Source: a virus
Lineage: Duplodnaviria > Caudoviricetes
Virus record (IMG/VR): IMGVR_UViG_3300017716_001697
Coordinates: 1-64,000 of that record
DNA length: 64,000 bases
Direction: 5' to 3' (one strand)
The translations under genes and the position numbers were made by a program. Positions 5,600 to 9,304 of the stretch are shown here, one piece after another; position 1 is the first letter of the stretch; each line of letters starts with the position of its first letter. Under the pieces are notes generated by a model. The model saw nothing but the letters and a program-made list of their open reading frames with translations, did not search any database and was not told the origin of the DNA.

Positions 5600-5711
5600 A
5601 TTCTCCTGTGATCGGTCACTATAATATACTGACACGGGGACCATTTATCCCCGGTCCATATGATTCCTGCATCTGTGGTGCATATTGTGTGATATGACTG
5701 GTGACCAATTT

Positions 5712-5826
5712 ATCGCTGTAGTTTAAAGGTAAAACCACTAAAAAGTTATCCTGCAAAGGATACGTACAGCATTCAATTTCCATTCTAAGGAGTTGATCCG
5801 GTGTTCGATTCCCGGCAGCGGTACCA
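5712..5826 (+). tRNA. tRNA-Arg(TCT)-like with inserted CAGCA module
   Basis: Acceptor ATCGCTG/CAGCGGT plus ACCA; D arm; ~40-nt insert; loop ATTCTAA; T arm. Confidence 0.6.
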
Positions 5827-5890
5827 TTTGACAATACATAGTTTAGCAATTAAACTAGAGGCTTAGTAACACATTTTTTGAAAGACACAC

Positions 5891-6913
5891 ATGAAAAATT
5901 ACGTAGGTATTAGCCGAGATCACAGTGGTTCCATGGGTAATATTGCATTGGCAGCTGGCCGCGATTACAATGACAACATTGCATCGCTCAAAGAAGGCGC
6001 CACCGAACACGGTATTGACACTATTGTTAGTGTTGTTAAATGTGGCGCAGGTCGCCCAGCCAAGGTTGTACGTGAGGTAGTAAATTCCAATGTACAAGTT
6101 TTGCAACCCATCAAGGATCGCGAATATATTGCAGATGGGAATTCGACTCCGTTGTTTGACAGCGTAGGCGATTTGATTGAACAGCTTCAAGCTGTGCCGG
6201 ATGCCGATGACATTAACGTGTCGTTTGTTGTTATGGTTATCACTGACGGTGAAGAAAATTCTTCGCAAAAATGGTCAGGTGCATCCATTAGTCGCAAGAT
6301 TAAGGAACTGCAAGCAACCGATCGTTGGACATTTGTTTTCCGTGTACCACGTGGTTATGCACGTAACTTGACAAACTATGGTATCCCTGCTGGCAACATT
6401 CTTGAATGGGACCAGACAGACCGTGGCGTTCAGGCTGCTACAGCAGCAACCCGTTCAGCAGTGAAGAGCTTCTATGCTGCTCGTGCAACTGGTGTCAAGA
6501 GCACAGATAAGTTCTATGCAGATTTGTCAACCGTGTCACTTAAAGAAGTTAAGAAAGAACTTGTTGATATTTCCGGTCAGGTCGACGTGTATGTCGTTGG
6601 CACTGCTAATAGCGGTGTTCAAATCCGCGATTTCGTTGAAGCACAAGGCGTTACGTTCACTAAGGGCTGTGCATTCTATCAGTTGAGCAAAACTGAAGAA
6701 GTGCAGGACTATAAACAAATTGCAATTCGCGATAAGAAGCAAGGTGCAGTTTATAGTGGATATTCTGCCAGAGATATGCTAGGATTGCCTACAAGCGGTA
6801 CATGCAAATTGGCTCCGGGGCAACACGGCCAATATGAAATCTTTATCCAGTCAACATCGGTTAACCGTAAGTTGGTTAAGGATACAAACGTTCTGGTATG
6901 GACCGGGGCGTAA
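5891..6913 (+). CDS. von Willebrand factor A domain protein
   Basis: DHSGSM MIDAS motif, TPLFD, VITDGEEN. Confidence 0.85.
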   Translation: MKNYVGISRDHSGSMGNIALAAGRDYNDNIASLKEGATEHGIDTIVSVVKCGAGRPAKVVREVVNSNVQVLQPIKDREYIADGNSTPLFDSVGDLIEQLQAVPDADDINVSFVVMVITDGEENSSQKWSGASISRKIKELQATDRWTFVFRVPRGYARNLTNYGIPAGNILEWDQTDRGVQAATAATRSAVKSFYAARATGVKSTDKFYADLSTVSLKEVKKELVDISGQVDVYVVGTANSGVQIRDFVEAQGVTFTKGCAFYQLSKTEEVQDYKQIAIRDKKQGAVYSGYSARDMLGLPTSGTCKLAPGQHGQYEIFIQSTSVNRKLVKDTNVLVWTGA

Positions 6914-7434: not shown

Positions 7435-7730
7435 TTGGCTATAAACTTTTTAGACAACGTAAAGACGGTACATTAGGTCCACTGTTTATTAATCGCAAAC
7501 AACGCCTGACTATCGGTGAAACATATATTGCAGAAGAACATCCTACAAAGGGTTTTGCATTTAGGCCAGGGTGGCATATATGTTCAGAAATGAATGCTCC
7601 ACATCTTAGTAAGAAAAATCGTGTGTGGGCAAAGGTTAGTTTTTCAAAGTATACAAGTCATAAACGTCCTGATTCACAAGGCGGACTTTGGTATACTGCT
7701 GATAAGATGAAAGTCTTAGAAGTGTATTAA
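7431..7730 (+). CDS. Hypothetical phage protein
   Basis: GTG start coupled to upstream stop (GTGA). Confidence 0.65.
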   Translation: MIGYKLFRQRKDGTLGPLFINRKQRLTIGETYIAEEHPTKGFAFRPGWHICSEMNAPHLSKKNRVWAKVSFSKYTSHKRPDSQGGLWYTADKMKVLEVY

Positions 7731-7734
7731 TAAT

Positions 7735-7809
7735 GGGTCCTTAATTTAATGGTAGAATGACTGCCCGATTAGCGGTTTGTGATGAGTTCGACTCTCTCAG
7801 GACCTACCA
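7735..7809 (+). tRNA. Degenerate tRNA-Ile(GAT)
   Basis: Cloverleaf and CCA, but loop CCGATTA lacks U33/R37. Confidence 0.55.
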
Positions 7810-9189: not shown

Positions 9190-9304
9190 AGGTTTGGTTC
9201 AGCAATAATTAAATTTTTTTCAACAAAAAAGGATCTGGGTTCGAATCCCAGCGGTAGATTTAGTCACTACTGTCGTCTAATGGTAGGATTTAAAAACAAA
9301 CCTG
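9190..9304 (+). ncRNA. CAGCA-motif RNA with YrlA-like permuted tRNA domain
   Basis: AGGTTTG-G-TTCAGCA...CAAACCTG enclosing T arm, looped acceptor hairpin and D arm. Confidence 0.65.

Follow-up and report, generated by a model that had tools for sequence, protein, structure and literature searches.

A phage tRNA gene with a capped handle inside its anticodon stem, a possible Y-RNA-like adaptor of a Ro60-like protein

Described systems and the phage locus

Ro60 proteins and Y RNAs are conserved from bacteria to humans, and the role of the tRNA-like part of bacterial Y RNAs is still debated. Class I RNAs of Dictyostelium have a motif that contains an ACAGCAA core. Pre-tRNA introns at non-canonical positions are known from archaea, where they involve a bulge-helix-bulge, EndA and RtcB, the latter being the tRNA-splicing ligase of archaea and animals. 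In engineered tRNA scaffolds, a foreign RNA takes the place of the anticodon stem-loop. Among bacterial Y RNAs, YrlA (RF02553; PMC4201824) arranges its tRNA parts as T arm, capped acceptor and D arm and carries them on a helix by which it docks to a Ro60-type ring; YrlA of M. smegmatis is opened by RNase P and a CCA end is added (PMC4201824).

Here we describe a 115-nt tRNA gene at positions 5712-5826 of a 64-kb window, that is, of the whole stretch of DNA analysed. The window represents the first 64 kb of the complete genome (364,576 bp, with terminal repeats) of an uncultivated giant phage from freshwater, and contains 43 tRNA genes, a permuted tmRNA and numerous small structured RNAs; the gene is the last in one run of tRNA genes. 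It encodes a 7-bp acceptor stem, a D arm, a T arm, a 7-nt anticodon loop with the anticodon TCT, and the terminal CCA, and its anticodon stem accommodates a 40-nt insert that forms a loop-closed helix, the handle. We refer to the whole as the handle-tRNA.

Similar to YrlA, the handle-tRNA has tRNA parts mounted on a helix that would dock to a Ro60-type ring. It differs from YrlA by an open acceptor, an encoded CCA and a real 7-nt anticodon loop, and by a docking helix that is capped and located inside the anticodon stem. The motif of the handle is ACAGCAA, whereas that of YrlA is GNCGAAN0-1G (PMC4201824) and does not occur in the handle-tRNA sequence. YrlA is bound by bacterial and phage Ro60/Rsr, while the presumed partner here is a DUF2828/DUF7788 protein that is Ro60-like in fold alone. 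RF02553 had no match in the window at the gathering threshold and none in 5600-5900 at E values up to 10. YrlA genes lie at most 4 kb from a TROVE-domain Ro60 gene on the same strand; the Ro60-like gene of this phage is on the same strand as the handle-tRNA, but 45 kb away.

Open-ended (free) handle RNAs of the phage resemble the Dictyostelium Class I RNAs (PMC7919456) by a short clamp helix with AAG and CUG(U) flanks and by a conserved motif placed beside the 5' strand. [quoted passage not shown] Free handle RNAs of DUF2828-encoding phages are not in Rfam.

As in archaeal pre-tRNA introns, the insert is short, lies in the anticodon stem and leaves a canonical tRNA upon removal, and RtcB is encoded here. 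In contrast to these introns there is no bulge-helix-bulge and no EndA homologue in the phage genome, the setting is that of a bacterial virus, and the insert is a conserved, putatively protein-binding module. With engineered scaffolds the handle-tRNA shares a tRNA body serving as stable, processable carrier of a structured insert, but it is natural and conserved, and its main class keeps the anticodon loop. The genes L005:5057-5146 and L002:115-207 of two related phage contigs are natural equivalents of such scaffolds. Our search of the full-text literature turned up neither work linking DUF2828 to RNA nor reports of phage tRNAs with inserts of this type. New here are the fixed wiring at nt 29/30, a family comprising 37 distinct sequences, and an anticodon that is hypervariable.

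Architecture of the gene and its insert

All parts of the gene are on the plus strand. The 5' strand of the acceptor stem (AUCGCUG, 5712-5718) pairs with 5816-5822, and across the family all seven acceptor pairs are 100% paired and six have changed on both sides. The D arm (GUUU / AAAGGUA / AAAC, 5721-5735) has U at position 20, in contrast to the A20 of ordinary tRNA-Arg. Nt 27-29 of the anticodon stem (ACU, 5737-5739), the upper half of its split 5' strand, pair with nt 41-43 (AGU, 5791-5793), which are followed by a 4-nt variable region ending at 5797. The insert occupies 5740-5779. The lower anticodon stem CC/GG (5780-5781/5789-5790) closes the 7-nt loop AUUCUAA, with the anticodon UCU at 5784-5786. 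The T arm (CCGG-U-G / UUCGAUU / CCCGG, 5798-5815) is followed by the acceptor 3' strand, the discriminator A (5823) and the encoded CCA (5824-5826), so delimited as 5816-5826. U33 is present in this loop; in two family members, L006:4055-4169 and L147:8597-8710, loop positions 32-33 have independently become CA in place of AU, giving A33.

The Rfam tRNA model RF00005 matched 5712-5823 (model positions 1-71) with 29.4 bits, compared to a gathering score of 29, and its alignment carried a 51-nt gap in the anticodon arm. ARAGORN run on the window did not call the gene at 5712-5826. Upon in silico deletion of 5740-5779, ARAGORN called a tRNA-Arg(tct) of 75 nt whose 5-bp anticodon stem is perfect, indicating that the insert sits between nt 29 and 30: in the intact gene the 5' strand of this stem is broken at 29/30 by 40 nt instead of running on to the 7-nt loop. 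A preliminary description of the locus had recognised a CCA-ended tRNA with an Arg(TCT)-like anticodon, in agreement with the Rfam match, the ARAGORN call after removal of the insert and the letters themselves, but had located the insert between the D arm and the anticodon arm, which has to be corrected to a site within the anticodon stem. Ribozyme and group I intron families of Rfam had no match in 5600-5900 at E values up to 10. Pairing of the insert linker with nt 41-47, favoured by RNAfold by 4-10 kcal/mol in most family members, was dropped as a conserved feature because 3-60% of shuffled linkers did equally well and because divergent members lack it.

The insert reads AAAAAG-U-UAUCCU-GCAA-AGGAUA-C-GU-ACAGCA-UUCAAUUU. 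It comprises an A-rich strand (AAAAAG, 5740-5745), the 3' strand of a helix (UAUCCU, 5747-5752), the cap GCAA (5753-5756), the 5' strand of the helix (AGGAUA, 5757-5762), a spacer C-GU (5763-5765), ACAGCA (5766-5771) and an AU-rich linker (5772-5779). Eight open-ended handle RNAs are encoded by the same genome (at 4110, 4352, 9190, 13761, 50056, 50708, 50817 and 51253), and their consensus starts with AAAG-R-N4, followed by two letters of which the second is U, by ACAGCAA, by a module that varies, and finally by an A-rich run and N4-Y-CUG. The insert agrees with these position by position. The pair AGGAUA/UAUCCU, with flanks A-AG and CU-G, matches the clamp helix AG-R-N4 / N4-Y-CU and its flanking AAG and CUG; GU-ACAGCA (5764-5771) matches NU-ACAGCA(A); AAAAAG (5740-5745) matches the A-run; and the terminal CUG and AAG are linked by two free letters. 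Neither CAGCA nor the A-run varies within the family. The CAGCA module is present in permuted form, its 3' part preceding its 5' part, just as the preliminary description had claimed. The GNRA closing loop of that description holds for the GCAA of the window and not for the family, since relatives have G-NN-A, which is not always a GNRA.

The handle is found in other surroundings as well. In the copies at 9190 and 50817 the order is handle 5' strand, T arm, capped acceptor, D arm and handle 3' strand, as in YrlA; this confirms the part order of the mirror-image copies that had been pointed out at 9190 and 50819. Open-ended handles also sit on hairpins shaped like anticodon stem-loops, and bare loops of the Lys(UUU) and Tyr(GUA) type are exposed by other handle RNAs of the window. 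The tRNA bodies L005:5057-5146 and L002:115-207 keep acceptor, D arm, T arm and CCA end, but have a capped handle where the whole anticodon arm would be; there the handle cannot act as an intron of a decoding tRNA. Both are the exact mirror of the YrlA-like copies, and one of them has the variant motif ACCACAA. The earlier proposal that the handle is a portable tag is well supported, for it occurs in every wiring with tRNA parts: open-ended on hairpins and on YrlA-like bodies, capped within a tRNA, and capped in place of an anticodon arm. It is plausible that the capped forms stem from tandem duplication of a YrlA-like gene, as the stretch from the acceptor 5' strand of the first copy to the acceptor 3' strand of the second shows exactly the same order.

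Contig L214 carries on its minus strand (around 7,520-7,760) two tandem open-ended handle RNAs just 2 nt apart (…CUG-AU-AAG…). The first has a GUU anticodon-type loop; the second has a GUU-type hairpin of its own, with the loop AUGUUAA, and then a T arm, a capped acceptor and a D arm arranged as in YrlA. A loose capped-handle pattern, CTGCAAAG-N7-ACAGCA, returned 117 stretches from viral contigs, only three of them with a complementary helix and none in a tRNA. The partner strand was found downstream in 6/117 and upstream in 0/117, and partner strands being so rare, this set is essentially due to chance. Eleven high-GC soil matches of a metagenome scan were ordinary terminator hairpins read on the opposite strand, and had no Rfam match.

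Two nt past the CCA begins a sigma-70-like promoter (TTGACA-17-TAAACT, 5828-5856, plus strand) of the downstream gene, a layout similar to that in L003, L007 and L008. This gene (5891-6913, plus strand; phrog_26613) encodes a protein of 340 aa with an N-terminal vWA domain, which has the MIDAS motif DxSxS, and a C-terminal beta domain. The handle-tRNA adjoins the vWA gene in seven phages, just upstream of it in five and just downstream in two; among the closest relatives of the 340-aa gene it is upstream in L002, L003, L007 and L008 and downstream in L005 and L006. The protein is a generic combination of vWA and beta domains, and no tie to RNA was found for it. The phage further encodes both RtcB and an Rnl2-type RNA ligase. 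Beyond the window the genome has just two ordinary tRNA genes, Arg(tct) and Met(cat) (genome positions 211746-215395); they flank the RtcB gene (212810-213937), and both anticodons are found on handle-tRNAs too. Two further elements are of unusual shape: a tRNA-like stretch outside the window (genome positions 219076-219126) with D and T arm and without anticodon arm, which is a weak model match (20.7 bits), and a 92-nt tRNA-Ile(UAU)-type gene in the window (53935-54026) with a long extra arm, unusual for a tRNA with UAU anticodon, and the arm loop CAGAUNA. The latter is kept in related phages (L011:2454-2547, L013:2818-2908 and L024:160-253).

A covarying family with changing anticodons

The family was collected by two pattern scans and by a covariance model built on 26 sequences. 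This yielded 53 matches, corresponding to 37 distinct homologues elsewhere, all with an insert of 40-49 nt at 29/30; about 40 related phage contigs carry a handle-tRNA. Conservation of insertion point and motif in orthologues, which the preliminary description had set as a check on its interpretation, was thereby established, as the 37 distinct homologues share the 29/30 site and the motif. Run on the 364.6-kb genome, the covariance model found a single such gene with 115.7 bits, compared to 47.8 bits for the best ordinary tRNA. Insert-free tRNAs with the same anticodon arm were not found in viral contigs, the seven distinct matches listed not being tRNAs, and the element had no blastn match among GenBank phages.

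In the 26-sequence alignment 96.6% of the cells expected to pair did so, compared to 81.9% after shuffling and 37-48% when the partners were slid. Seventeen pairs had changed on both sides, and all helices covary. The split stem 27-29/41-43 was 100% paired in the 26 sequences, with covariation at all three pairs (AU15/CG11, CG15/UA10, UA25/GC1). The handle helix likewise has three covarying pairs, including UA15/CG9/AU2 and CG16/UA10. The cap is always G-NN-A, and both of its middle letters are among the fastest-changing sites, while the CC/GG pairs are invariant in the 26 sequences and loop positions 32, 33, 37 and 38 almost so. After in silico removal of the insert, ARAGORN accepted 28 of the 37 family members. 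These features mark a gene family under selection rather than a damaged tRNA.

Some members deviate from the common form. Tandem handle-tRNAs 6-7 nt apart are present in four contigs: in L167:2206-2446, L187:7156-7399 and L207:981-1222 they consist of one with a CAU-type loop and an A-A closing pair and one with GUC, and in L168:1812-2052 of one with UAC and one with GUC. L220:274-392 and L226:2592-2711 are odd members, one having a UCA anticodon, which would read the UGA stop codon, and the other an 8-nt anticodon loop. In a GUC clade (L147, L167, L198, L207 and L168) the D loop is AAAGCA, with loss of G18G19, and the T loop is UUUAGCGAU or UUAACGAC in place of UUCGAWU; these coordinated changes suggest a rebuilt elbow.

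Eleven anticodons occur in the family (GUC, UAC, CAC, GAC, UCU, GUU, CAU, UCC, GCC, UUC and UCA), which correspond to Arg, Val, Asp, Asn, Met, Gly, Glu and opal kinds on near-identical bodies. Whatever the anticodon, the loop frame A32-U33-NNN-A37-A38 is almost fixed. The three anticodon columns require 7, 8 and 6 changes by parsimony, the highest values in the molecule and level with the free cap letters. In five close pairs of sequences, anticodon letters differed at 7/15 positions, compared to 33/578 for other letters. L150 (GUU) and L176 (GUC) differ at a single one of 116 other positions, and L149 (UCU) and L150 (GUU) at 5/118. None of the 11 anticodon kinds has A34 or G36, and the triplets therefore look like usable anticodons. 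An ordinary tRNA with the same anticodon was present in the fetched flanks of at least 12 contigs, and in the genome described here at 211746-211820.

As a yardstick for charging we used 597 distinct ordinary tRNAs predicted in the same loci. In these, G73 is found in 16/20 tRNA-Asp and 28/29 tRNA-Asn, tRNA-Val mostly has A73, tRNA-Gly(UCC) has U73 in 13/14, and A20 (the A after G18G19) is present in 26 of the 29 phage tRNA-Arg. Among handle-tRNAs, G73 goes with GUC or GUU in 4/6 lineages and with other anticodons in 1/16 (Fisher p about 0.009, with lineages roughly counted), and L170 (anticodon GCC) has U73. The recently switched L150 (GUU), L176 (GUC) and L146 (UCC) keep A73, and all UCU members, that of the window included, have U or C in place of A20. 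Recognition by synthetases thus seems to matter for handle-tRNAs in the long run, arginine charging of the one in the window appears doubtful, and aminoacylation in general is only suggested by these identity letters.

A Ro60-like partner and the fate of the insert

The presumed partner of the handle is encoded at 51302-52735 (plus strand) and has the Pfam domains DUF2828 and DUF7788. Its sequence does not match TROVE (Pfam) or any solved Ro60. An AlphaFold model of the DUF2828 protein based on 30 homologues (pLDDT 80, pTM 0.74) had as its best 13 PDB matches exclusively full-length Ro60/TROVE proteins (E 2e-10 to 2e-6, TM 0.47-0.62), from Thermus phage phiLo, Xenopus, Deinococcus and human. 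An open-ended handle copy (51253-51289, plus strand) abuts the ribosome-binding site of the gene in an operator-like manner. We took 80 homologous DUF2828 loci with 1.5-kb flanks and applied a strict handle search: open handles were present within 1.5 kb of 49/80 homologues, and in 18/80 loci the handle ended at most 30 nt from the start codon, next to the Shine-Dalgarno sequence, which is also the situation at 51253-51289. By sequence, a handle on the ribosome-binding site has the layout of an autoregulatory operator. No handle-tRNA was found beside the gene in these 80 fetched loci.

The Ro60-like gene is present in three of five partial contigs that carry a handle-tRNA, and four more distant relatives, 94-100% complete, have neither the gene nor a handle-bearing tRNA; as the phages without both are the more distant ones, this co-occurrence is partly confounded by relatedness. 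The Ro60 fold, the handles on the ribosome-binding site of the gene, and the joint presence or absence of gene and handle-tRNA make a strong circumstantial case that the DUF2828 protein binds the handle. The insert keeps every feature of the free handle, including the CUG/AAG ends, as required if one protein recognises both forms. One of the four relatives without a Ro60-like gene, the 360-kb phage G006, has a 129-nt tRNA-like gene (G006:147170-147298 = L240:1501-1629, minus strand) with a different insert at the same place of the anticodon stem. This insert of 54 nt forms two small hairpins and lacks ACAGCA, and the gene folds far better than shuffled sequences (z = -4.3). That an insert-bearing tRNA-like gene is kept where the Ro60-like gene is missing speaks against the reading favoured below.

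We tentatively favour the view that the handle-tRNA is a Y-RNA-like adaptor that shows a real tRNA on a Ro60-like ring, with the insert retained. The gene would yield a chimeric RNA composed of a full cloverleaf with open, CCA-ended acceptor and a capped handle between nt 29 and 30. The insert would stay in the mature RNA and dock the tRNA on the ring-shaped Ro60-like protein, and the resulting particle would expose a genuine tRNA, two base pairs separating its anticodon loop from the handle, in a manner resembling the tRNA mimic that YrlA Y RNAs show on Ro60. The anticodon would be an exchangeable specificity element, and the particle may be a bait, a decoy or a recognition adaptor towards host effectors that act on tRNA, or may serve in the repair of damaged tRNA. 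Retention and docking are favoured because all features of the stable free handle are kept and because capped handles also occur where decoding is impossible. Retention is further favoured because the loop frame is not adapted to the anticodon, because an ordinary tRNA for the same codon is already present, and because no known splicing machinery or motif (EndA, bulge-helix-bulge or Rfam ribozyme) was found. As an ordinary tRNA of matching anticodon is normally available in the phage, the particle would most likely act in a fight over tRNAs, and routine decoding by the handle-tRNA is unlikely. Such a conflict role, proposed by analogy, is also suggested by the switching of the anticodon on a frozen scaffold, in conjunction with RtcB, the Rnl2-type ligase and the Lys- and Tyr-type loops of other handles. 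Protein binding, insert retention and a conflict role are inferred, as is charging to the extent discussed above. Two findings sit less easily with a retained decoy: removal of the insert leaves a perfect 5-bp stem (ARAGORN, 28/37), which fits excision as well, and usable anticodons together with the discriminator trend suggest a selection by synthetases or decoding that a pure decoy would not need.

These same findings lead to the alternative of a protein-dependent intron: cuts at 29/30 would be directed by the Ro60-like protein or by some other handle-recognising factor, and RtcB would join the halves to a regulated 75-nt decoding tRNA. Besides the canonical tRNA obtained by precise in silico removal in 28/37 members, the fully kept 27-29/41-43 pairing with its three covarying pairs, the legitimate anticodons, the discriminator that tends to track them and an RtcB gene beside the ordinary tRNA-Arg(tct) of the phage are in line with it. 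We nevertheless consider it unlikely, if worth serious attention. The phage genome has no archaeal-type splicing endonuclease (PF01974, EndA). By inspection of the window and its relatives, the junctions ACU|AAAAAG and AUUU|CC lack a bulge-helix-bulge, that is, a conserved pair of 3-nt bulges separated by 4 bp, and Rfam gave no ribozyme or group I intron at E values up to 10. The insert preserves all features of a stable free handle, beyond splice signals alone; neither the loop frame nor the CC/GG pairs change with the anticodon; the same capped handle replaces the anticodon arm outright in L005 and L002; UCU members are without A20; and the phage is already supplied with an ordinary tRNA of this anticodon. 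The specific version in which the Ro60-like particle itself recognises the embedded handle and directs its excision, with phage RtcB sealing the halves, we rate slightly lower again. If true, it would amount to a new kind of tRNA-splicing pathway in a bacterial virus, with a Y-RNA-type module as intron, and handle excision would let the phage release spare tRNAs of chosen anticodon on demand.

Should the insert be retained, the RNA might instead be charged and stay tethered to the protein as aminoacyl-tRNA, acting as amino-acid donor or as ribosome-directed adaptor. The open acceptor stem, the encoded CCA and the conserved T and D arms would suit such a role, as would the G73 found with GUC/GUU in 4/6 lineages against 1/16, the U73 found with GCC (L170), and the precedent of M. 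smegmatis YrlA, which is cut by RNase P and gains CCA (PMC4201824). We regard this as improbable, since the recent switches to GUU (L150), GUC (L176) and UCC (L146) retain A73, A20 is absent from all UCU members, the G18G19/T-loop signature is lost in some lineages, and the tethered amino acid would have changed frequently without evident reason. In addition, an arm of 40 nt inserted at 29/30 would probably collide with the ribosome where the 30S subunit touches the anticodon stem. It is also conceivable that cleavage occurs in the G-NN-A cap, as at the CUG/AAG ends of free handles, leaving a tRNA in two pieces that the handle helix, the acceptor and 27-29/41-43 keep together. The two unconstrained letters of the CUG-NN-AAG cap, the AAG start and CUGU end of Dictyostelium Class I RNAs (PMC7919456), and the L214 handle genes a mere 2 nt apart agree with this; yet a closed G-NN-A loop accounts for the same data, and with a partner strand at 6/117 CUG-CA-AAG...ACAGCA sites tandem junctions are not common, so that we give this possibility little weight. 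Least credible is a decaying, functionless tRNA gene with a selfish or accidental insertion. The missing ARAGORN call, the borderline Rfam score and the ordinary tRNA-Arg(tct) elsewhere in the genome might be read in this sense, but the covarying helices contradict it: compensatory changes are seen in every helix across 37 distinct homologues, the loop flanks are invariant, and the position beside the vWA gene is kept across seven phages.

The DUF2828 protein family is present in 710 GenBank phage records, including Felix O1-like coliphages, and tractable hosts thus exist. One of the latter is Bas63, in which the ppl defence system is countered by a Ro60-like protein (10.1101/2024.10.10.617714), and the authors suspected Y RNAs among neighbouring tRNA genes (10.1101/2024.10.10.617714); this protein, gp130, is compared here by its Ro60-like character alone. 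Compared to known Y RNAs, the handle-tRNA would be an extreme case, in which a whole tRNA with free CCA end and working-looking anticodon loop is wired to a Ro60-like docking module. The swapping of the anticodon while its surroundings are frozen suggests that the particle works through its anticodon loop. Such fast anticodon turnover would link phage Ro60-like proteins to the conflict over tRNAs, in which anticodon nucleases, tRNA repair and phage tRNA sets take part.
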